Source: Escherichia phage KKE7M. From it: a DNA stretch of 64,000 nucleotides. The stretch lies in sequence record PQ356295.1. One strand, given 5' to 3'. The translations under genes were made by a program, and so were the position numbers. How positions within the stretch are numbered: position 1 is the stretch's first letter; every line of letters starts with the position of its first letter. Of this stretch, positions 4,981-35,313 are shown in pieces. Below the pieces are notes generated by a model that was not told where the DNA came from, searched no databases, and was given only the letters and a program-made list of their open reading frames with translations.

Positions 4981-5485
4981 TATAAGTGTCATTAAAGATA
5001 GCTTTATTGATGTAACAAACGATATTGTACCTACAATACAATATATAGTTGAGGCACAAGGTTTAAACTTCATACGTGATAAAGTTAAGATTGTTTTTCA
5101 TAACACTCCAGGTTTTGTAATAGTAGGTTCAACAGAAACGATGTATCCTACAGATCTGATCACTTTAGACAAAAACTTAACACAAGAAGAAGTAGAAATT
5201 CTTAACCTCTATTGGTTAGGTTTTAAAAGATATGAGGATACAGCTTTATCCCGAATGTCAACTATTTTAGCTAATATTCTGGTGCGGAAAATTTCTAAAA
5301 TATGGGATGAAGAAAACCCAGATGAAATAATTTTACACTTTGCTAAACCGGAAGACGGGGCATATGATATAGACACATCTGAAATGGCTTATGGGTTTAT
5401 TATTTCTGGTAATGTATTACAGATGGAATCTTTATTGTATGTTGAGACAGTAAAACACAATAACAATTACGAGGAGGTTGTATGA
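4961..5485 (+). CDS. hypothetical protein (174 aa)
   Basis: ORF overlapping upstream 3-prime end; GAGGAGAA upstream. Confidence 0.55.
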   Translation: MVLSRNNISVIKDSFIDVTNDIVPTIQYIVEAQGLNFIRDKVKIVFHNTPGFVIVGSTETMYPTDLITLDKNLTQEEVEILNLYWLGFKRYEDTALSRMSTILANILVRKISKIWDEENPDEIILHFAKPEDGAYDIDTSEMAYGFIISGNVLQMESLLYVETVKHNNNYEEVV

Positions 5486-16691: not shown

Positions 16692-17036
16692 TTATTCAAA
16701 AGAATCAATTCGATTTTGTTCTATGTCAATTGCAGCATCTAGGATAAGTTTTAATGCTTCAAATTGCAAGTGTTCTTCTAAAGAGAAGACATATAAAACA
16801 ACGGATTCCAAGTAAGACAGCACCCCAAGACTAAGAGTTGCAATTTCTACTCCTGCATCGGAGAAGCCTGTTTGCAAAACTTCTTTGAAGAAACGTTGTT
16901 TATCAACAATAGCAGATAAAATAAGCGTTTTACGCTCCTCTGCTGATCGTACTGTGCAGTATATGTTGCTAAAAGAGTCCAGCCACATTTTGATCATACC
17001 TTGTCGGTACATAAGGATTTCAATATCAGCCAACAT
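16692..17036 (-). CDS. hypothetical protein (about 114 aa)
   Basis: Start trimmed to ATG with GAGGAGAAATAAT RBS. Confidence 0.55.
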   Translation of the reverse strand: MLADIEILMYRQGMIKMWLDSFSNIYCTVRSAEERKTLILSAIVDKQRFFKEVLQTGFSDAGVEIATLSLGVLSYLESVVLYVFSLEEHLQFEALKLILDAAIDIEQNRIDSFE

Positions 17037-17037
17037 A

Positions 17038-17205
17038 TTATTTCTCCTCTGGAGAGAGATTCGAATTGATTTGATAGTAAAAATCAAAATCCTTGTGTTG
17101 ATTGCACCATTCTTGAGCTTCTTTAAACGACGCAAATTGCATAGTGAATGTTGCCATCCACGTGTTCATATTTTTATTGAACTTGTCGATAAAAAATGTT
17201 TGCAT
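17038..17205 (-). CDS. small protein, about 55 aa
   Basis: GGGAGGAATA RBS before internal ATG. Confidence 0.45.
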   Translation of the reverse strand: MQTFFIDKFNKNMNTWMATFTMQFASFKEAQEWCNQHKDFDFYYQINSNLSPEEK

Positions 17206-17423
17206 TATTCCTCCCATTTTATCCAAAGGCAGTATTCTGGAACATAAACCTCTTTCCCTTTGTTATTCACAAAGGTGTACTCCACAAATTCTGCTTTATA
17301 TGTTTTGTTATATTCCTGTGCTGCTGGCACAGGACATTTTGTAATGCGCGTTTCAGTCCAACGGCGGTGTATAACCGCCTTGTTCTTTGGATCAAACGGA
17401 TGTATAAAGTGTGTTTTACTCAT
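17205..17423 (-). CDS. hypothetical protein (about 72 aa)
   Basis: Internal ATG overlapping upstream gene end by 8 nt. Confidence 0.45.
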   Translation of the reverse strand: MSKTHFIHPFDPKNKAVIHRRWTETRITKCPVPAAQEYNKTYKAEFVEYTFVNNKGKEVYVPEYCLWIKWEE

Positions 17424-17820
17424 GTGCCATTTCCACAAGATTTTTAATCATAGTTTCTCGACAGAGATTCCACATATCTGAAGCAACCATAGAGGCATAT
17501 TCATCGGGGTTGGATTCTGGTAAAATCTCTTTGACTGCTTCTGGTGTCGGATTGCACATAGCAGGTAGTGCTTTAAGTGCATCTTCAATAGAGAGCTTCT
17601 TACCTTCACTGTAAATAATCTCGTAATCATAGTCATTTACATCTTCCGAAATATCCCGATCCAGGTAACGTACAGTGGAGTTATGCATTTTGTTCATAGA
17701 TTCACTAACACCAGCACCACAAAGCTGTGCAACTTCTTTAGAGATACAGTCACAAATAACAACTTCGTAAGGCTTTCCACCATAATACTGCGCATTATAT
17801 TTGATTTTAACAGACCACAT
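17416..17820 (-). CDS. hypothetical protein (134 aa)
   Basis: AAGGAGAG RBS upstream. Confidence 0.6.
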   Translation of the reverse strand: MWSVKIKYNAQYYGGKPYEVVICDCISKEVAQLCGAGVSESMNKMHNSTVRYLDRDISEDVNDYDYEIIYSEGKKLSIEDALKALPAMCNPTPEAVKEILPESNPDEYASMVASDMWNLCRETMIKNLVEMAHE

Positions 17821-17830
17821 ATTACTCTCC

Positions 17831-18517
17831 TTATTTAACGTGTTTTAGCAATTCAATGTTAGCAGAATAGTTTTCACCACAATTAGTAACGCTCAACAGT
17901 GACCATTTACAAGAGAATACACCTTTTAGATGATCTGGAATACACATCAACGGAACATAAACTGTTTCTGAATCTTCTGTTTGCTCTGTTTTGTTAACAT
18001 TGCAACAAAATGGCAATACATCATCATGAATCATTTTACATTCACTCAAATTGTCTAACATATGTGAAACTTGTTCTGAAGTTTCAAACATTTCTGCTTC
18101 ACAAGCCAGTGCACCAACCACTTGATAAGCCTCTCCACACAAATCTTCTAGTTCTAAAATACGTTCAGACATAGTTTCGATGATTGCTGATCGTGCTTTC
18201 ACTTTAGTTTCTGCTTCTTTAATTTTATTCTCAAGTTCGGCAATGTACTTCAGTAGTGCACTAACAACATCTTGAGTATTTTCTTGATCATCTTGGGAAA
18301 TTTTTACCAAAGAAGAAGCTGCTTTGCAGCGCACTTTAGGCTCTACGTAGCCAAAAGTCATATTTTCCGAAGAAGATTGTTGTGAAAACCAGTGTTTGTT
18401 CGAAGAAAACACAGGTTCATCTTCAAACCAGAACACATCCCCAGTAATATCACGAGCCATGAAGTTTGCATTATCTGGAACTTCGTAACGATGCCCTTCA
18501 AACATAATCTCTTTCAT
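17831..18517 (-). CDS. hypothetical protein with coiled-coil segment (228 aa)
   Basis: GGAGGATG RBS upstream. Confidence 0.65.
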   Translation of the reverse strand: MKEIMFEGHRYEVPDNANFMARDITGDVFWFEDEPVFSSNKHWFSQQSSSENMTFGYVEPKVRCKAASSLVKISQDDQENTQDVVSALLKYIAELENKIKEAETKVKARSAIIETMSERILELEDLCGEAYQVVGALACEAEMFETSEQVSHMLDNLSECKMIHDDVLPFCCNVNKTEQTEDSETVYVPLMCIPDHLKGVFSCKWSLLSVTNCGENYSANIELLKHVK

Positions 18518-19101
18518 TACACATCCTCCATTTGGAACATCTCTTTGTGGTTAGAATAGATCTGTTTGAAAATCTTGTCAAGGCGTTCATATGATTCTTT
18601 ATGCTCTTGTTTCCATCCGTGATTTCGGATTTTATCTGCCAGGTCATAAACCTCGCATAAAACTTTGGCAAAGTTGGTATTATTTATAGCACAAGCCTCA
18701 AAACCTTGAACTAAACCCTCTACATCGTACCACGTATAGTCAGAGTCACTAGGAGGCTTTCCTGCATCGGCTAAACGTTGCCTTACCCATTCAATACGTT
18801 TTTCATTCAAATGGCACTTACCTTCTCTGCACTCTTGTTCTAATTCTTCTTTAGATTCATTGAATGGGTGAAGGACAGGAAGTTCTGCTTTTTGCAATTG
18901 CTCCAGGTATTCACCTACAATGCGCATAGCTTCACTGTGTGTACACTTTCTGCCTGTGTGCCAGTAACGGAAGATACTTTCTGTTAAACAGATGTTTTTA
19001 CTAAACATCGCATTGTCTTTAACATTCGATCTAGTAACCCAGTCTATATAATATACATAAAACTGCAATAATTCATAACTGCTTGGTATAATTTTACTCA
19101 T
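18517..19101 (-). CDS. hypothetical protein (194 aa), paralog family A
   Basis: AAGGAGAAG RBS; shares LLQFY ... LHPFN ... motif set with 19725..20093 and 22021..22386. Confidence 0.65.
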   Translation of the reverse strand: MSKIIPSSYELLQFYVYYIDWVTRSNVKDNAMFSKNICLTESIFRYWHTGRKCTHSEAMRIVGEYLEQLQKAELPVLHPFNESKEELEQECREGKCHLNEKRIEWVRQRLADAGKPPSDSDYTWYDVEGLVQGFEACAINNTNFAKVLCEVYDLADKIRNHGWKQEHKESYERLDKIFKQIYSNHKEMFQMEDV

Positions 19102-19110
19102 GACTTCTCC

Positions 19111-19278
19111 TTAGTTGTGCAAAATGTTATCGATCAGTATGACTAGTAGTACGAGGATAGAAGGGAGCAGGAATAGAAATCTTAACATTATGTGATGCGT
19201 GTGAGAAGCGGCTTTAGCTCCAGCCGCCAATAAGCCTACTAGTCCTACAATAAAGAGGAGTTGTTCAGGGACACCCAT
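19111..19278 (-). CDS. small membrane protein, about 55 aa
   Basis: ATG adjacent to upstream stop; hydrophobic; not in ORF track; coordinates approximate. Confidence 0.35.
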   Translation of the reverse strand: MGVPEQLLFIVGLVGLLAAGAKAASHTHHIMLRFLFLLPSILVLLVILIDNILHN

Positions 19279-19279
19279 A

Positions 19280-19504
19280 TTATGGAACACTTGGATACTC
19301 CGTAAGTTTAGCTAACAGTTGAATATGTGGACACGTAAATTGTTGTCCTGGATAGCGTGAGCTAATATCCTCCAGTAAAGCGATCACAGCATTGTGCAAT
19401 GCTTCGTAATCTTCATAATACACCATTTCTCCATTAGGATCTTCAACAATATCGCAGTGACAAGCGTGAGCAGTACACGCATCCCATTCCAGACGTTTTA
19501 CCAT
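19280..19504 (-). CDS. hypothetical Cys/His-containing protein (74 aa)
   Basis: AAGGAGGA RBS upstream. Confidence 0.55.
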   Translation of the reverse strand: MVKRLEWDACTAHACHCDIVEDPNGEMVYYEDYEALHNAVIALLEDISSRYPGQQFTCPHIQLLAKLTEYPSVP

Positions 19505-19513
19505 AAATCCTCC

Positions 19514-19732
19514 TTACTTATACATTTGATATGATACATAACGATTGCAATCAAGTGCGAGAAACTTTTCAGCATCCCTTTGATGCTTGAACACAATACA
19601 CTGTTCTTTTTTAGCTTCACTTTCACGAGCTTCTCTTGCCATATAATCACCTAAACGAACGATATTAGAGAACAATACGTATGCAAGAATAAGACAAACA
19701 GTAATTGCACAGAAAATTTTAAACTTAACCAT
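19514..19732 (-). CDS. small membrane-anchored protein (about 72 aa), paralog family B
   Basis: Start trimmed to ATG with GGAGGGATACA RBS; TM helix plus C...FKH..AE.FL...C..Y motif shared with 14795..15019. Confidence 0.5.
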   Translation of the reverse strand: MVKFKIFCAITVCLILAYVLFSNIVRLGDYMAREARESEAKKEQCIVFKHQRDAEKFLALDCNRYVSYQMYK

Positions 19733-20093
19733 TGTATCCCTCCATATCACGAATACGATCAATCACCCATTGTACACGTTCTTTGTTAAGGTGTGCAGTG
19801 CCTAGCTCTGTTTCCGTAAAGTAATGTGAGAAATCTGTATTAAATGGATGTAAATGGTTCAAACCCGCTTTCTTAAACTGTTCCTTCATTTCCTCTCGTA
19901 CAGAGGATTGGAGTTTTGATACATTTTCAACATCTTTTATCCAAGCGATGTTATATAAGAAGTCTACAAGACACGTGCAAAGACCATAGTGCTTTTTGCT
20001 AAAGTTTGTATCTTCTTGTTCCAACCACCACTCATAAAATTGTAGCAAATAGGGGCTGCTTTTCATGTTACACACTTTATTATTCTCTTGCAT
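19725..20093 (-). CDS. hypothetical protein (122 aa), paralog family A
   Basis: AAGGAGAAG RBS; LLQFYEWW ... GLCTCL ... LHPFN ... QWVIDRI motifs. Confidence 0.6.
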   Translation of the reverse strand: MQENNKVCNMKSSPYLLQFYEWWLEQEDTNFSKKHYGLCTCLVDFLYNIAWIKDVENVSKLQSSVREEMKEQFKKAGLNHLHPFNTDFSHYFTETELGTAHLNKERVQWVIDRIRDMEGYNG

Positions 20094-20102
20094 GGCTTCT
20101 CC

Positions 20103-20402
20103 TTAATGCCAGTCTACGATCACTGAATCTACAAAACCCTCTTTGGTGTTTAAAGCATACACCTTACTAAGTCCACGCTCTCGTAGTGCTTCCATAGCAA
20201 GATCAATCAAATCAACTTGGCGTTTCCTTGCTTGTTCATTTGTCGGGTAGTCATCCAAACCGAAAACAGATGGTTTAAATGCTTTGGAGTATTTACCAGT
20301 CTTAGCCTGATCATAACAGTCCTGAATGACTTCATCAATAGGAAACCACAAGCCTTCTCCACTTTGTTTTGCAATACAACGCAGTTTTTCTGTAACAGTC
20401 AT
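20103..20402 (-). CDS. hypothetical protein (99 aa)
   Basis: AAAGGAGAGGAAG RBS. Confidence 0.6.
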   Translation of the reverse strand: MTVTEKLRCIAKQSGEGLWFPIDEVIQDCYDQAKTGKYSKAFKPSVFGLDDYPTNEQARKRQVDLIDLAMEALRERGLSKVYALNTKEGFVDSVIVDWH

Positions 20403-20611
20403 TCTTCCTCTCCTTTCAATTTACACTCAAAGATACCATTCTTAATGTTATCTGTCAAATAAAGGCTATCTTCTATCTCTTCTTTTGTATACACATAAGC
20501 CTCCTTTTCCACGTCAGTCAGACCTTGCATCGGAGCTAGTAGCCACCAGCCCCGCCAGTCAAACATAGGAGACTTATCAGATACACGAAGAATGTATCTG
20601 TCATTACACAT
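20399..20611 (-). CDS. hypothetical protein (about 70 aa)
   Basis: ATG close to upstream stop; weak RBS. Confidence 0.45.
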   Translation of the reverse strand: MCNDRYILRVSDKSPMFDWRGWWLLAPMQGLTDVEKEAYVYTKEEIEDSLYLTDNIKNGIFECKLKGEEE

Positions 20612-20612
20612 A

Positions 20613-21065
20613 TTATACAATGTTCACATGAACATCTGCAACACCAATAAGAGAATAGACTTCAACTACACTCTGTGTACGATCCAGCTTGTAACGTTTT
20701 GCCTCTTTTTCAACTTCCTCACGGTAGATGGTTTCCACGATTGGAACTCCATCCACTACAAGCAGGTATTTCTCTTCATGCTTACTTTTTGGTGCTTCTT
20801 CTAATACCTCTACAAAGTATTCAAACTCACTCTCTACAAGCAATGTGTAACACTGAAGAAAATCTCCTTCATTTTGAGTGATAATTTCTTGCTCTCCTGC
20901 TAAGGATTGCAAAGAAGTGACACCATACCAGTCATCAATATCTAATACACGAAAATAGGAATCACCTAAGAAAGAAGCAATCCTGCTATTGAACTCAGAC
21001 ACATTAGCAAACTTACGGATATAAGATTCGTTCTTAAAACGATACACTTTACCAATTTCAAACAT
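20613..21065 (-). CDS. hypothetical protein (150 aa)
   Basis: AAGGAG RBS upstream. Confidence 0.6.
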   Translation of the reverse strand: MFEIGKVYRFKNESYIRKFANVSEFNSRIASFLGDSYFRVLDIDDWYGVTSLQSLAGEQEIITQNEGDFLQCYTLLVESEFEYFVEVLEEAPKSKHEEKYLLVVDGVPIVETIYREEVEKEAKRYKLDRTQSVVEVYSLIGVADVHVNIV

Positions 21066-21076
21066 TACACAACTCC

Positions 21077-21259
21077 TTATTGTTCAATAGTAAAAGGAAT
21101 GATTTCACCATAACTGTGTTGCATTTGCATGGCATCCACTTCTGCTTCTGCGCGTTGTGCTAGTTCTAATGTTGCACAGATCTTGTAAGGGACAGTGCTG
21201 CATTGGTTCCAGTCTAGGGTATTCTTTGTTACTAAGTACACAGTAGTTTGTTTATCCAT
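21077..21259 (-). CDS. hypothetical protein (60 aa)
   Basis: AGAGAGGAAAAG RBS. Confidence 0.5.
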   Translation of the reverse strand: MDKQTTVYLVTKNTLDWNQCSTVPYKICATLELAQRAEAEVDAMQMQHSYGEIIPFTIEQ

Positions 21260-21274
21260 CTTCTTTTCCTCTCT

Positions 21275-21490
21275 TTAAACAGTATATTCGTGTGGAAGGA
21301 AAACATAGTCTTCTCCTTCAACAACATCAACTACTTCCCAATTCCAGCCAGGTACTTGGCTCATTGTCTTGAATGACACATAAGCAACTCCGCTGTAAGC
21401 TATATCGGCATCCAATATAAGAGGGAAAGCAACGTGTGTCAACCCCAGATAGCCACAATTATTCTCGATACACACCCTAATGCTTTTCAT
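21275..21490 (-). CDS. hypothetical protein (about 71 aa)
   Basis: Start trimmed to ATG with GGAGCATAAC RBS, 1 nt after upstream stop. Confidence 0.5.
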   Translation of the reverse strand: MKSIRVCIENNCGYLGLTHVAFPLILDADIAYSGVAYVSFKTMSQVPGWNWEVVDVVEGEDYVFLPHEYTV

Positions 21491-21491
21491 G

Positions 21492-21950
21492 TTATGCTCC
21501 ATTAAAGACGGGGCGTGTAGCGTTACGTTCATCATTCACTGTAATAAGGTTTTTCATAACCATAACACCCTGAATATAGCCTAGCCAACGATGGCGTTTG
21601 GTTTCAGACATACCATTACACCCATCCTGAATTTCATTCAACATCCACAGCAAGTGGGAAGCACCTGTTTCACTAGTATCTGGATCTTCTACAGAACTAA
21701 GAATCGTTTCATAGCGTTCACAAATTTCTGGGTAGAATTCATAATCCTGTAGTACATCTCGCATTTCTTGAATGAAGTGACGAGCAATAGGTTTTCCACG
21801 AAAATATTCATTGAGGAAATCAATAACACACATCTCACTGCCTGTCACCACGGAAGGCTTTCCTATGTTAAATTGAACACTCACACCGCATTCTTTTACA
21901 AGATTATGTACACGCTCCGTGTTAGCAAGATACAAAGATACAGTTTTCAT
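21492..21950 (-). CDS. hypothetical protein (152 aa)
   Basis: GAGAGGTG RBS upstream. Confidence 0.6.
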   Translation of the reverse strand: MKTVSLYLANTERVHNLVKECGVSVQFNIGKPSVVTGSEMCVIDFLNEYFRGKPIARHFIQEMRDVLQDYEFYPEICERYETILSSVEDPDTSETGASHLLWMLNEIQDGCNGMSETKRHRWLGYIQGVMVMKNLITVNDERNATRPVFNGA

Positions 21951-22020
21951 TTACACCTCTCATTAGTAGTTTGTTATGCGCGATATTGTATATCTTATGG
22001 AACACAGTGTACAGACATTT

Positions 22021-22386
22021 CTATTCAATGCAAGCATTATTTGCATCTTCGATTCTGTCTTTCACCCACTGCAATCTCTTTGGGTTGGTATGGCAAGAAT
22101 GTGTCTTACCTTCATCTTCATAACACAGAAGATCATAATTAAAGGGTAGGAAGGAGGATAGCCCAGCACACGTGAATTGCAGTTTCATCTCTTCCAGTGT
22201 TTTACTACGAACCATCTTGAAATATTCTATATCTTCTTCCGTAGGTTTTTTCTTTGACATAGTGGTTGCCAGGTAATCCATAAGGCAATTACACAAACCA
22301 ACATTCTCACGATGCATTGAGGAATGATCTTCCATCCATGCTTTGTAAAATTCTAACAGCAGAGGACTGCTAAGAGGAACACACAT
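22021..22386 (-). CDS. hypothetical protein (about 121 aa), paralog family A
   Basis: Start trimmed to ATG with AAAGGAGTC RBS; LLLEFY ... GLCNCL ... LPFN ... LQWVKDRI motifs. Confidence 0.55.
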   Translation of the reverse strand: MCVPLSSPLLLEFYKAWMEDHSSMHRENVGLCNCLMDYLATTMSKKKPTEEDIEYFKMVRSKTLEEMKLQFTCAGLSSFLPFNYDLLCYEDEGKTHSCHTNPKRLQWVKDRIEDANNACIE

Positions 22387-22747
22387 ATCAGACTCCTTTA
22401 TAAATTTACGTTTCATGCTACACATCATACAGCGTCTTTTCATCTATTACAAGAACAGCAACCTAGAAACATCATTAATAGAGGAATTAGTATAGGATTT
22501 CCCTATCAATTATTCTATATATACCTAATATTTTTAACACACCCCTTTGTACATAATATAGACAAATAAATATCTATGCCACAAAAATTTTCCGGTATAC
22601 CCGATTTATTTCGACACACCCCCTTTTCATAAGCGTAAAGCCAATAATATCAATAACTTGCCGCAAAATACTGCTCGCTTGCGAGAGGTGCTTAACGCGA
22701 TTTTTAGCGCCCCCGATTTCTGCCGACCGTCCCCCTCAAATATCAAT

Positions 22748-22776
22748 GAGAATTATTATCATTTGCATTATCATTC
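22748..22776. promoter_or_regulatory. Fur-box-like AT-rich palindrome
   Basis: GAGAATTATTATCATTTGCATTATCATTC resembles GATAATGATAATCATTATC. Confidence 0.3.
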
Positions 22777-22942
22777 AATGACTTATAAGACTTTTGATTA
22801 TTTTCTGAGCAAGAAAGGCACTACTCACAACAAAACAGATAAATTATAAGTAAATCAATGACTTGGCAAGTCTAAACATCTATATACACCTTGCCAAATG
22901 AAATGATCCTGCGTGAAATAGTGCTACCCGTGGAAGATAGCT

Positions 22943-22963
22943 GATAATGATTATCATTTGCAT
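22943..22963. promoter_or_regulatory. Fur-box-like AT-rich palindrome
   Basis: GATAATGATTATCATTTGCAT. Confidence 0.3.
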
Positions 22964-23272
22964 ATTTTCTATACTATAAAACTACCTAAAAATCAAGATA
23001 ATTCTGATTTATTGCGCTTTTAAGAGAATAGGCTCAACAAATAGGCTATAACTATGCTCAACAAATGATAGGTTATATGGGGCAATAGTATGAAAAACCA
23101 TCTATTCAGATATAAATAATTTTGCGCAATAATGGTGATATTTTTCTTGACAAGAAAGATTTCTTTGTGTTCACATAGCGTCCCCTGGAAGGTGGCGCAT
23201 TATGATCATCAATGTCATTGTTCACGATGTTTATTATTGAATAGCTTATTATATGTAGCTTATATTATAGCC

Positions 23273-23456
23273 AATGTTCCAAACATTAGCTAATAATAAC
23301 GCACCGCAACAATGTAAGGGATACAATATACCATGTATATTGTTGCGCTTGCAATTGTTGCAAGCTACATAAGCACAAATAATAACTATCGGTGATGGTT
23401 ATTATGTGGGGTGTGTAGTTGCGTTATTATTAGCCGCCTATGTGTCCGGCATAGGC
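23273..23456. other. nested inverted-repeat (multi-hairpin) structure in gene-free region
   Basis: 15-bp perfect inverted repeat GCTAATAATAACGCA / TGCGTTATTATTAGC encloses three internal hairpins; a fourth GCCTATG / CATAGGC hairpin follows. Confidence 0.5.
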
Positions 23457-23499
23457 TGCTAATGATACGCTTGCTAATTATATTTCTTGTTATAATTAT

Positions 23500-23826
23500 T
23501 GTATGAAATGATTACGGTATGAAATGATTATTTAGGTAATAGATAGTAAGGTAAAGATTAGATCATAAATAGATAGGATATTAATTATTTAGTAATGTTA
23601 CTAACAATTTAATAGTTACTTTGTGCAACAATTCGATAGATTATAGTTATAGTTTTAAAGGTTAGATAGATTATATTTAGCTTGGTAATGATTTATATTA
23701 GTTATTGTTGTTTAATATAAGGTTATCAATGAGATAGTAACAGTAAGTTATAAATAAAGGTGAAATAATTAGCTTTAATTTAGTTAGATAACTTATTATT
23801 TTATAGGTTAGATGGTCATAAGTTAA
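23500..23826. repeat. AT-rich iteron-like short repeats
   Basis: Dense reiteration of TAGATAG / GGTTAGAT / GATTATA words in about 330 bp without ORFs. Confidence 0.35.
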
Positions 23827-23899
23827 GAATGATTATCATTATTGCATTATGCAGTTTATTGCATAAATAATCAGCTATAAATGAGAATGATTATTATTT
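23827..23899. promoter_or_regulatory. pair of Fur-box-like palindromes
   Basis: GAATGATTATCATTATTGCATTATGC and GAGAATGATTATTATTT. Confidence 0.3.
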
Positions 23900-24104
23900 A
23901 AGAGGAAAGACAAGAAAAAGGCTGTTTTTGCCAGATAGTTACATGGAGAAATTAAAAATAAGCGGTCTAAAACACGTTGTAAGCGCCTTATGATCTTCAT
24001 GGTATGGTTGTTCATCTGCTCCTTGATTAGCTCGATACCGCGATCTATTCACTTTTTTCGGTGAACGTTTTTGATAGGTAAAAGCTATCATCTTTATTTA
24101 GGTA

Positions 24105-24145: not shown

Positions 24146-24529
24146 TTACTGATAAGCTGGATCGTTTGTTATATCAATCCAATGAGCTAAATTAATTTTA
24201 TTTTTTGCTTTCATTTTCTCGATCAAACGTTCGGCTAATGTCTCGGAACGAATATAAACATGCTCGCTAAAATCTTGCCCCGTTTCCTCGTCGATCATCT
24301 CGCGATATTCAATTTTCCCGATAAACGCATGATTCAGCGCATAAGTTTTACCCGTGTACCAGTTGTGCAAATGAATCTCACATTTATAATCATCGCTATA
24401 ACCTTCGGTTGTTCTAACTTCAACCAGATCGCCTTTAAACACTGATAAGCACCACATAGGATCACGATCTACAGCGCCGTTAAAGTCTTTACCGTTTACA
24501 GTAGCCGCCAGGTTGATGATATTGCTCAT
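24146..24529 (-). CDS. hypothetical protein (about 127 aa)
   Basis: Start trimmed to ATG with CGAGGAAT RBS downstream of a sigma70-like promoter. Confidence 0.6.
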   Translation of the reverse strand: MSNIINLAATVNGKDFNGAVDRDPMWCLSVFKGDLVEVRTTEGYSDDYKCEIHLHNWYTGKTYALNHAFIGKIEYREMIDEETGQDFSEHVYIRSETLAERLIEKMKAKNKINLAHWIDITNDPAYQ

Positions 24530-25793: not shown

Positions 25794-26180
25794 TTATTCA
25801 ATATAAATCAAATTATCTTCACCAATGTAAGCATGCACCGATGGCATTAATTTAGCGGCATTTGTTAGGCGGTTCGCCGTGTTAGTGGTGTATATTTCAG
25901 GGCGATCCCAAAAGCCTACGCCGTGACCGTTACGGGTAAAATGTAAATCATTCCCGATCTGGTTTGCTGTAGCGCCGTCGCTCATTGCCTCAGAGATAGC
26001 TGCAACATTGGCATTACAAAAGGCGGTCACATCGCTGGTAATACGTTTCAGGGCGCTAGAAGAAAAATCATAATCGTCTAGATTCTCAATATATTCCCCA
26101 TTGTGATCCGTCGCTGGTTCGGCAAAAATAAAGGCTTCTTTATAGCCGTTGATCATTTCGTTAATGATTTCTGTTTTCAT
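25794..26180 (-). CDS. hypothetical protein (128 aa)
   Basis: ATGA overlap with upstream gene. Confidence 0.6.
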   Translation of the reverse strand: MKTEIINEMINGYKEAFIFAEPATDHNGEYIENLDDYDFSSSALKRITSDVTAFCNANVAAISEAMSDGATANQIGNDLHFTRNGHGVGFWDRPEIYTTNTANRLTNAAKLMPSVHAYIGEDNLIYIE

Positions 26181-26392
26181 GCTGTACGCTCAACAATAAT
26201 AATGGTTTGCGGGATCTCGTTTTCTACTACTATCAAGGCTTTTTTCTGCGTGATAGATATCTTTACCCGCTTCAGCGTGGCGGTAAAGTCTTTCATTTCG
26301 TCACGTGGTGTTTTAGTGCAATACCAGATCTCAGGTTTACCTATTTGCAAGCCGCGTAAAAATTCCGTTTTACCTGTCTTATTCGTGATCAT
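26177..26392 (-). CDS. hypothetical protein (about 71 aa)
   Basis: ATG with AAGGTGA RBS. Confidence 0.5.
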   Translation of the reverse strand: MITNKTGKTEFLRGLQIGKPEIWYCTKTPRDEMKDFTATLKRVKISITQKKALIVVENEIPQTIIIVERTA

Positions 26393-27985: not shown

Positions 27986-28308
27986 CAATAATCTTTAATA
28001 TTTTCCACATTTACAAAAGTGTGTTTATTTTCTAAGTTTTCGCCGTACCATTGCCCAATGTTGATTTCTGCGGTGCGCAACCAGGACATGCCGCGTTCTA
28101 TCTTTTTGCTTGCAATGTCGATCCGGCTTTTACATAGTGCTTTCGCTTGCAATGTAAAAACACTATTGCCCTGTAATGCTTCCAGGTCATCATGTGCAAG
28201 GCGATACTCTTTAAAGCCTGATTCTATCATTTCAATAGCATCAAGTAAACGCGCGCGATGATAGAAAAAATCAGAGTTATCCAAATAAACACCGATCACA
28301 GATTTCAT
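27985..28308 (-). CDS. hypothetical protein (about 107 aa)
   Basis: Start trimmed to ATG with AAAAGGG RBS. Confidence 0.6.
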   Translation of the reverse strand: MKSVIGVYLDNSDFFYHRARLLDAIEMIESGFKEYRLAHDDLEALQGNSVFTLQAKALCKSRIDIASKKIERGMSWLRTAEINIGQWYGENLENKHTFVNVENIKDY

Positions 28309-28329
28309 AATTTTACCCTTTTGTTTGCG

Positions 28330-28379
28330 GCCTTTGCCGTTTTCAAGATATAGTTTAAAGCATAACAAAAAATTGTCAA
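28330..28379 (-). promoter_or_regulatory. sigma70-like promoter (TTGACA ... TAAACT), minus strand
   Basis: Consensus -35 with plausible -10 upstream of 28308 start; no GGCGGG hairpin. Confidence 0.4.
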
Positions 28380-28408
28380 GCCTTTAAAGCGTACAACTAT
28401 AAAACCTA

Positions 28409-35180: not shown

Positions 35181-35292
35181 AAATGAGAAAAATTCTCATT
35201 TGCTAACGATTCTCATTCTCTTACTGAGAATGATTATCACTTACATAATTAAATGATAATGATTCTCATTTACAAATGAGAATGATTATCAT
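35181..35292. promoter_or_regulatory. cluster of Fur-box-like palindromes
   Basis: AAATGAGAAAAATTCTCATTT, GAGAATGATTATCAC and AAATGATAATGATTCTCATTTACAAATGAGAATGATTATCAT. Confidence 0.35.
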
Positions 35293-35313
35293 ACGCACAC
35301 CTATAAAAACACG

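Follow-up and report, generated by a model that had tools for sequence, protein, structure and literature searches.

The window analysed in this study, a stretch of 64,000 nucleotides from the phi92-like E. coli phage KKE7M (PQ356295.1), encodes on its minus strand three related proteins, which we term A, B and C. Gene A (18517..19101, annotated as bas62_0154) encodes a protein of 194 aa in which the family domain spans residues ~5-115; the family part is thus restricted to the first ~115 residues, and residues ~120-194 constitute a lineage-specific helical extension unrelated to the family. Genes B (19725..20093; bas62_0150) and C (22021..22386; bas62_0143) each encode a single family domain, in proteins of 122 and 121 aa, and are orthologous to phi92 gp006 and UAB_1 gp001 respectively. 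The coordinates of all three coincide with annotated CDSs of phage JohannJBalmer (97.5% identical). We take C to be the 121-aa form rather than the 140-aa ORF starting at 22443, because a Shine-Dalgarno sequence, AAGGAG, can be read on the minus strand at 22393..22398, 6 nt upstream of the start codon at 22386. Annotation and blastn further identify an unstranded stretch at 22692..23034 as homologous to the 343-bp left direct terminal repeat of UAB_1, which UAB_1 gp001 adjoins, and positions 1-1094 of UAB_1 match window positions 23034-21943 at 96% identity (blastn). The physical genome end maps to ~23034, with C as the first gene inward from the terminus and the block from C to A running further inward. 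The initial annotation had placed the three genes in a block of host-interaction-type genes, and the UAB_1 comparison indeed locates them within small accessory genes at the terminus-proximal genome end. No RNA families were detected within the window using Rfam.

The similarity between the three proteins, originally proposed from an ordered set of short motifs, is statistically significant. In BLASTP comparisons B and C share 40% identity over 115 aa (E=1e-26) and A and B 30% over 114 aa (E=1e-11), while the match between A and C (E=5e-8) is confined to the C-terminal half. A phmmer search of the window's complete set of 657 stop-to-stop ORFs linked A, B and C alone (E-values from 1e-22 to 4e-6; next E>0.2), and a more sensitive family HMM built from 115 sequences recovered the same three at 1e-29 to 1e-34, with no fourth copy in the window by either method. 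Hence both the count of three and the description of these proteins as real paralogs with function-less annotation stand. All the ordered motifs could be located, namely LLQFY/LLEFY, GLCTCL/GLCNCL (ICLTE in A), LHPFN/FLPFN, (C/A)H(L/T)N and R.(Q/E)WV..R(I/L). The last of these, initially written as (R/K).(Q/E)WV.(D/Q)RI, is present in all three but ends in RL rather than RI in A, which is the most divergent copy and also has ICLTE in place of GLC. These motifs correspond to the conserved columns of a wider family.

Profile searches connect A to phrog_27059 (1e-139) and phrog_2510 (5e-17), and B and C to phrog_2510 (3e-26 and 1e-22 respectively); likewise, all 115 aligned family members match phrog_2510. 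Across the whole domain, A, B and C show significant profile-HMM matches to PHROGs 2510, 6418, 27059 and 2176 (equivalent to pVOG VOG7392), which represent the same family and are all labelled 'unknown function'. These entries were generated by automatic clustering and carry neither a name nor a structure nor a function, and the family is scattered across four of the PHROGs; the annotation of phage outra already carries the VOG7392 tag on A, B and an extra copy. An exhaustive HMMER search recovered 818 clusters (at 50% identity) with E<=1e-3, and 206 at 1e-10, the majority of which are stand-alone proteins of 96-130 aa. The family occurs in 183 phage records, ranging from phages of E. coli to those of Rhizobium, Xanthomonas and Erwinia, and on 1 of 72,556 plasmids. 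It is restricted to phages, both virulent and temperate, of alpha-, beta- and gamma-proteobacteria. A scan of viral contigs yielded six family loci, and a scan of genome contigs with the fused, multi-domain proteins as query yielded none. Pfam gave nothing consistent across the 115 members, NCBIfam contains no model for the family, and the PADLOC anti-phage defence HMMs returned only a 12.5-bit chance match to Cas12d. A literature search on the family identifiers, EaA and phi92 early genes retrieved no functional report.

The number and arrangement of the domains vary considerably. This genome has three copies, congeners have four and the sister genus reaches at least 6-8; the fourth copy, which is 52% identical to C, is found in 4 of 8 genomes of the genus. 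Unrelated phages carry tandem arrays of 4-5 domains, such as the four consecutive family genes directly 3' of the DNA ligase gene in the T4-like Yersinia phage JC221, and two- and three-domain proteins also occur. In addition, the domain is found as an internal module, with Pro/Ala-rich linkers on either side, of 250-400-aa mosaic prophage proteins; tblastn matches fall on CDSs annotated as 'EaA protein', and several different mosaic proteins (annotated EaA/EaD) contain one identical domain sequence. This modular use resembles the mosaic early proteins of temperate enterobacterial phages, such as P22 EaA/EaD and the lambdoid Ea22-type proteins with their 'portable' C-terminal domains. Ea22-type proteins have been described as very early transcribed, oligomerising scaffolds that bear variable 'portable' domains (PMC10834534). 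Unlike them, A, B and C are stand-alone proteins without the Ea22 N-terminal or coiled-coil signature. The solved C-terminal domain of lambda Ea22 is a mixed alpha-beta dimer (PMC10834534), whereas the family domain is all-alpha in our model, and the family profile does not match that C-terminal domain. Neither Pfam nor NCBIfam detected Ead_Ea22 (IPR025153) in A, B, C, the fused proteins or the window neighbours. The neighbouring gene at 17416-17820 bears a DUF551 label from one depositor; Pfam gave no match to DUF551 (IPR007539) in this neighbour, in A, B and C or in the fused proteins, and NCBIfam gave none in the fused proteins or the neighbouring genes. We also considered a 'split EaA operon', given that in JLBYU50 the labels ead/Ea22-like and DUF551 have been assigned to genes downstream of A; this idea went unconfirmed, as Pfam, NCBIfam and BLASTP revealed no module common to these neighbours and the fused prophage proteins.

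Structure prediction and sequence conservation together define a ~110-residue, soluble, mildly acidic domain (pI 5.4-5.7 for A, B and C; family median 5.3) that is predicted to be all-alpha. The AlphaFold2 model of B comprises six helices (pLDDT 86.5, pTM 0.80), and in that of A the N-terminal domain is predicted with confidence (~88-95) and the three C-terminal helices with considerable uncertainty (55-78); the underlying alignments were shallow, with 17-19 sequences, the word-indexed protein search having given 1, 14 and 2 matches. The 115 aligned members share only ~25-45% identity, and yet Y20, P83, F84 and R106 (numbering of B throughout) are invariant, and L16, F19, G37-L38-C39, E68, Q72, F73, L78, N103, W109 and V110 nearly so. 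B and C possess the complete set, and A all but G37 and C39, being the sole aligned member without the near-invariant cysteine. Most of the conserved columns are probably structural, because they occupy hydrophobic-core or helix-cap positions in the model: the hydrophobic ones follow helical periodicity, S13 and N103-P104 stand before predicted helices, and A76-G77-L78 closes one. In contrast to this scaffold, the loops at ~47-64 and ~86-100 vary in both length and sequence. Capping and core packing do not, however, account for Y20 (115 of 115), C39 (114), E68 (106), Q72 (111) and R106 (115), which point inwards from four of the helices. The family profile retrieved no PDB chain at E<=10.

The combination of a cysteine at a helix N-terminus with an arginine and a glutamate would equally be expected of a catalytic or ligand-binding pocket. 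The family could accordingly comprise small enzymes or binders of small molecules, second messengers or metals (e.g. a thiol redox protein or a signalling-nucleotide sponge), with a site formed by Y20, C39, E68, Q72, N103, R106 and perhaps H101, and with copies differing in ligand specificity. We regard this as unlikely overall, but as the strongest of the alternatives. The near-invariance of polar residues in such divergent sequences, those from phages of distant hosts included, speaks for it, as do the placement of C39 at the N-terminal end of predicted helix 3, where a reactive thiolate is favoured, the restriction of losses from the residue set to a minority (A, ZCKP1 25933-26334 and phiWec188 28057-28395), and purifying selection on the whole gene. 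Against it, no enzyme or ligand-binding family was matched by sequence or fold, and helix capping explains several of the conserved 'polar' positions. Neither a canonical Cys-His dyad nor a Zn site can be recognized, since H101 is present in 76% and C100 in 50% of the members; with C41 in 12% and C39 alone near-invariant, the family lacks the three or four conserved Cys/His ligands of a metal site. Moreover, purifying selection on A (pN/pS 0.12) is no different although this copy has lost C39, and known phage sponges are usually single-copy, unlike this multi-copy family. The most specific version, in which the family has a new helical fold whose buried Tyr20-Cys39-Glu68-Gln72-Arg106 cluster forms a reactive-thiol or ligand pocket, is more doubtful still. 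If correct, it would imply a hitherto unrecognized phage enzyme, or else a protein that sequesters or senses a small molecule of the host, such as an immune second messenger or a redox signal; phages would have diversified it in tandem arrays and mounted it on oligomeric scaffolds of the Ea type, to serve counter-defence or the control of lysis-lysogeny.

Phylogenetic analysis indicates that A, B and C are true paralogs but belong to anciently diverged lineages. Neither A, B and C together nor B and C were monophyletic in any of 100 bootstraps, and C groups with the copies of another genus in 83 of 100, which contradicts the earlier suggestion of local duplication with divergence. The rapid evolution expected under that suggestion is not borne out either: the proposed dN/dS analysis, performed as pN/pS among orthologues, gave 0.12 for A, 0.11 for B and 0.24 for C, values that signify purifying selection and resemble those of the neighbouring genes (0.00-0.20), and the few substitutions are scattered along the genes. 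The portrayal of the three as an arms-race family therefore survives only with respect to their dynamic copy number, and not with respect to the age of the lineages or the selection acting on them. In its strict form, in which recent local duplicates evolve fast and track variants of a single host factor or defence protein, it strikes us as improbable. It gains from the within-genus variation in copy number, from the repeated origin of tandem arrays (three of the four domains of one array-bearing contig, L002, cluster together) and from the location of the genes in hyperplastic accessory regions. However, the 30-40% identity between copies that are not each other's closest relatives runs counter to it, as does the fixation of identical residues in members from phages of alpha-, beta- and gamma-proteobacteria, which points to one conserved biochemical property rather than to rapid tracking of host-factor variants. 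A conserved ligand would explain the whole-gene purifying selection, and the conservation in phages of distant hosts, just as well as a conserved protein target would.

The domain is found in the early-gene regions of four phage architectures. Apart from its terminus-proximal location in the present phage, the domain is encoded in N4-like contigs between RNAP II and the homologues of N4 gp1/gp2, and in a T4-like phage within the 30.x region, downstream of DNA ligase. The fourth setting is the Ea-type genes of lambdoid phages, which belong to the first genes to be transcribed (PMC10834534). Because these regions of N4-like, T4-like and lambdoid/P22-like phages are transcribed early, early expression of A, B and C in the source phage is plausible; the initial description of the proteins as 'early' thus agrees with their position. 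The likeness to the hyperplastic 30.x cluster of T4-like phages is positional only, as seen in the JC221 array, and the named T4 proteins have no sequence relation to the family. The window also encodes a protein with the Pfam domain Phage_30_8, 1.8 kb from C.

Such a position would suit a protein that binds nucleic acid or regulates transcription or translation within the phage's early programme, for instance by modulating host RNA polymerase or sigma factors, and depositors have annotated some of the small neighbouring genes as 'putative transcription factor'. T4 AsiA, a small all-helical early protein that binds a sigma factor, provides a precedent. In B alone, residues 8-75 align weakly with positions 41-105 of profiles for the sigma-S-binding protein Crl in three libraries: Pfam PF07417 (E=0.09; 13.0 bits against a cut-off of 27), NCBIfam NF008217 (E=0.013; 15.4 bits against 117) and phrog_18153 (2e-4). 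We nevertheless rejected Crl as the identity of B, and regard these matches as due to chance, since they involve one of 115 members, fall far below the cut-offs and are not seen with A and C. Crl is likewise absent from the results of the PDB sequence and fold searches, and its solved structures are alpha/beta, as against the all-alpha model of the family. With no helix-turn-helix or other nucleic-acid-binding fold detected, and a mild acidity unfavourable for binding DNA or RNA, a regulatory role appears the least probable of the alternatives weighed here. A DNA-mimic anti-restriction protein of the Ocr/ArdA type does not fit the data, given that such proteins have a strongly acidic surface and a pI of about 4 and that ArdA is common on plasmids, against the pI of 5.4-5.7, the lack of a fold match and the single plasmid occurrence recorded here.

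Based on these observations we tentatively favour, as the best available explanation though one of less than even probability, that A, B and C are anciently diverged representatives of a large phage-restricted helical family of early accessory effectors, which would bind macromolecules rather than act as catalysts. As the domain architecture suggests, a compact helical scaffold would hold the variable loops, and each copy may use its variable surface to recognize a host or phage macromolecule; a host target is what we infer. Phages could then widen or multiply this activity by maintaining several diverged copies, by tandem fusion, or by mounting the domain on oligomerising mosaic proteins of the EaA type.

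As phage 'dark matter' the family is solid, yet fairly ordinary. Still, it comprises more than 800 clusters, has been repeatedly amplified and placed at the sites of the earliest genes, and has neither a Pfam entry nor a solved or recognizable fold. Treated as a single domain family, it ties together 'hypothetical proteins' by the hundred, among them modules of the EaA/Ea22-type prophage proteins, which have long been enigmatic. If it were a host-takeover or counter-defence module, its wide distribution would make that role a general one; otherwise it would be a typical accessory family. For its study, the BASEL collection provides a tractable system in its phi92-like phages, which carry three to four diverged copies and can be grown on E. 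coli K-12.

The ORFs that we term A (18517-19101, 194 aa), B (19725-20093, 122 aa) and C (22021-22386, 121 aa), all on the minus strand, lie exactly where the initial annotation had placed them, and the mutual similarity it had observed was confirmed by BLASTP: B and C are related with E=1e-26 (40% identity), A and B with E=1e-11 (30% identity), and A and C with E=5e-8 in an alignment confined to the C-terminal half of the domain. C is taken as a 121-aa protein rather than a 140-aa ORF beginning at 22443 because AAGGAG is located 6 nt upstream of the start codon at 22386. In searches of all 657 stop-to-stop ORFs of at least 40 aa in the window with phmmer and a three-sequence HMM, A, B and C were the sole family matches (next best E>0.2), and a 115-sequence family HMM likewise recovered no fourth copy in the window. 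The family part of A comprises only residues ~5-115; residues ~120-194 (18517-18741, minus strand) form a C-terminal extension lacking significant relatives, with weak PHROG matches (2e-3 to 6e-2).

A, B and C truly form a set of three within a large domain family that is specific to phages and uncharacterised. The motifs initially noticed in them are all genuine and represent conserved columns of this far larger family, as seen in the 115-sequence alignment. Searching 1.84 billion representatives exhaustively with HMMER and a profile of the three paralogs gave 818 clusters at E<=1e-3, of which 206 reached E<=1e-10; P0090, among the top-150 matches, was rejected as an artefact of low-complexity repeats. 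The domain occurs in 183 phage records (tblastn) from myo-, sipho- and jumbo phages of Escherichia, Salmonella, Klebsiella, Yersinia, Erwinia, Xanthomonas and Rhizobium, and is regarded as phage-restricted because only 1 of 72,556 plasmids carries it. Most members stand alone and are 96-130 aa long, with about a dozen two-domain versions and a single three-domain version. Ten further members are modular enterobacterial prophage proteins of 250-400 aa, in which Pro/Ala-rich linkers flank the domain; an identical domain sequence is present in several different mosaic proteins of this kind, and CDSs bearing it have the depositor name 'EaA protein' (tblastn). A, B and C each match phrog_2510, and A additionally matches phrog_27059; Pfam, NCBIfam and PADLOC returned nothing significant for them. 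When the 115 members were scanned individually no recurrent Pfam match emerged, and the PHROG matches were to phrog_2510 (115), phrog_6418 (109), phrog_27059 (103) and phrog_2176 (46), all unknown-function families. Public sources hold no functional name for any member. The family has thus been auto-clustered (PHROG, pVOG) yet never described, and deserves a DUF-type entry.

The AlphaFold2 model of B, built from a 17-sequence alignment, has six helices (pLDDT 86.5, pTM 0.80); the N-domain of A is predicted to share this architecture, with its 75-residue extension forming three low-confidence helices. No PDB chain matched the family profile at E<=10, and a Foldseek search of the PDB gave no fold match (best E 1.9, TM 0.30). 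Matches in BFVD (TM 0.6-0.77), from phages of Rhizobium, Pectobacterium, Achromobacter, Burkholderia, Klebsiella, Delftia and Shigella, are confined to uncharacterised family members, and the predicted fold is therefore consistent across the family. All three proteins are mildly acidic (pI 5.4-5.7). The 115 aligned sequences have a mean column identity of 25%; Y20, P83, F84 and R106 (B numbering) are invariant among them, and L16, F19, G37-L38-C39, E68, Q72, F73, L78, N103, W109 and V110 show conservation of 90% or more, with H101 retained in 76% and C100 in 50%. C39 is absent from A alone, and E68/Q72 are lost in a few other divergent copies from high-copy genomes. The hydrophobic conserved positions show helical periodicity; in the model S13 and N103-P104 immediately precede helices and A76-G77-L78 terminates one, so that these look like helix-capping motifs. 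Neither capping nor periodicity accounts for the conservation of Y20, C39, E68, Q72 and R106.

We tentatively favor a binding role, as adaptor or inhibitor, for the family, since the domain's occurrence in tandem and on oligomeric scaffolds suggests that valency is important, it is the loops that vary, a catalytic or metal signature is absent, and no enzyme-like fold was found. The observations are in keeping with a portable, stable helical module deployed early by phages and multiplied or multimerised. The main alternative, a Cys-centred enzyme or putative ligand pocket, draws on the unusually fixed set of Y20, C39, E68, Q72 and R106, but appears rather unlikely.

Improbable, too, is a strict arms-race inhibitor family, as raised in the initial annotation. 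The copy-number dynamics of the domain family as a whole do not contradict such a reading: three copies each are found in the window, JohannJBalmer, JLBYU50 and AV123, and four each in outra, Paula, PATM and A150, the extra gene lying directly downstream of C with 52% identity to it, between the C orthologue and a 152-aa gene (5015-5383 in locus L005, 5304-5672 in L007 and L008, 5020-5394 in L004). Of the 8 Justusliebigvirus genomes compared, 4 have this fourth copy, a presence/absence polymorphism inside the genus. At least six copies occur in ZCKP1 and at least eight in phiWec188 (within the 30 kb examined), unrelated metagenomic phages have 4-5 consecutive domains, and Rhizobium phages carry three. 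Local tandem expansion does occur in other parts of the family. For A, B and C themselves, however, the arms-race reading is contradicted. Neither A+B+C nor B+C was an exclusive group in any of 100 bootstraps of an NJ tree, so the three copies are old lineages rather than a recent local expansion; C clusters with the extra copy and a terminus-proximal tandem pair of Phapecoctavirus (83/100), while the placement of A and B is weak (38 and 18). When summed over the 8 Justusliebigvirus genomes, Nei-Gojobori pN/pS comes to 0.12 (A), 0.11 (B) and 0.24 (C, from 4 gap-free sequences), and lies between 0.00 and 0.20 in the 13 neighboring genes; each protein has 11-14 variable sites, which are scattered, with none at invariant positions. 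A regulator or sigma-binding role is scarcely probable, as its sole specific support, a match to Crl, was rejected (1 of 115 members, below cut-offs, wrong fold class).

By megablast, Escherichia phage JohannJBalmer (Bas62) matches 17000-23500 at 97.5% identity across 100% of the query, and ~40 more genomes of Justusliebigvirus, a genus of phi92-like myoviruses of the Stephanstirmvirinae, match at 95-97%. The JohannJBalmer equivalents bas62_0154 (A), bas62_0150 (B) and bas62_0143 (C), all labelled 'hypothetical protein', sit within a long leftward run of small unnamed genes. The accessory block also encodes a T4 gp30.8-family protein (24146-24529, minus strand; PF06019, E=4e-29) and a protein with weak similarity to goF/FRD2 (20613-21065, minus strand; phrog_2980 1e-7, Pfam FRD2 0.02). 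The record of Salmonella phage UAB_1 begins with a 343-bp 'left end direct terminal repeat', and its orthologues gp001 (C), gp008 (B) and gp011 (A) all read inward. As UAB_1 1-1094 aligns to 23034-21943 with 96% identity, the physical genome end maps to ~23034, with A, B and C in the first ~4.5 kb; the UAB_1 annotation and this alignment place the repeat at 22692-23034, so the window spans the junction of genome ends, and its AT-rich gap of 1.7 kb (GC 0.33) is the terminal region. Two N4-like contigs have a single family gene between homologues of N4 gp1/gp2 and RNAP II, an interval that is the early region in N4; T4-like phage JC221 has a DNA ligase followed by four consecutive family genes; and lambdoid and P22-like phages carry the domain on Ea-type proteins. 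From these settings we infer that early expression of A, B and C in this phage is plausible. Finding such a set in a phage early region is no surprise. Scanning for sigma-70 promoters gave 38 sites where 33 were expected, which does not exceed background.

In both N4-like contigs a DUF4326 (PF14216) gene directly follows the family gene (L022 5569-5901; L023 2303-2632), and could be a conserved partner or mere shared synteny; none was found with Pfam among ten neighbors of A, B and C. Repeats closely resembling the E. coli Fur-box consensus GATAATGATAATCATTATC occur at 22732-22963, 23821-23903 and 35229-35293. Three distinct sites match it with <=3 mismatches (0.04 expected), there are 10 occurrences of the core AATGATTATCATT (0.41 expected), and two sites fall where the window is homologous to the UAB_1 terminal repeat. 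They may mark early control regions that respond to iron/Fur or titrate Fur, or else operators belonging to a phage regulator. Downstream of A, the orthologues of 17831-18517 and 17416-17820 (both minus strand) bear the JLBYU50 depositor labels 'ead/Ea22-like family protein' and 'DUF551 domain-containing protein'; the 228-aa product of the former has a coiled-coil-like segment in its center. A 'split EaA operon' based on these labels was rejected, as Pfam, NCBIfam and BLASTP do not reproduce them. Finally, MG065639, MG065645, MG065656 and MG065689 ('Campylobacter phage' A150, A145, C3 and A110a) are UNVERIFIED records with Campylobacter jejuni as stated host; they share ~96% identity with this block of the E. 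coli phage and are classified as Justusliebigvirus, and their host assignment looks doubtful.
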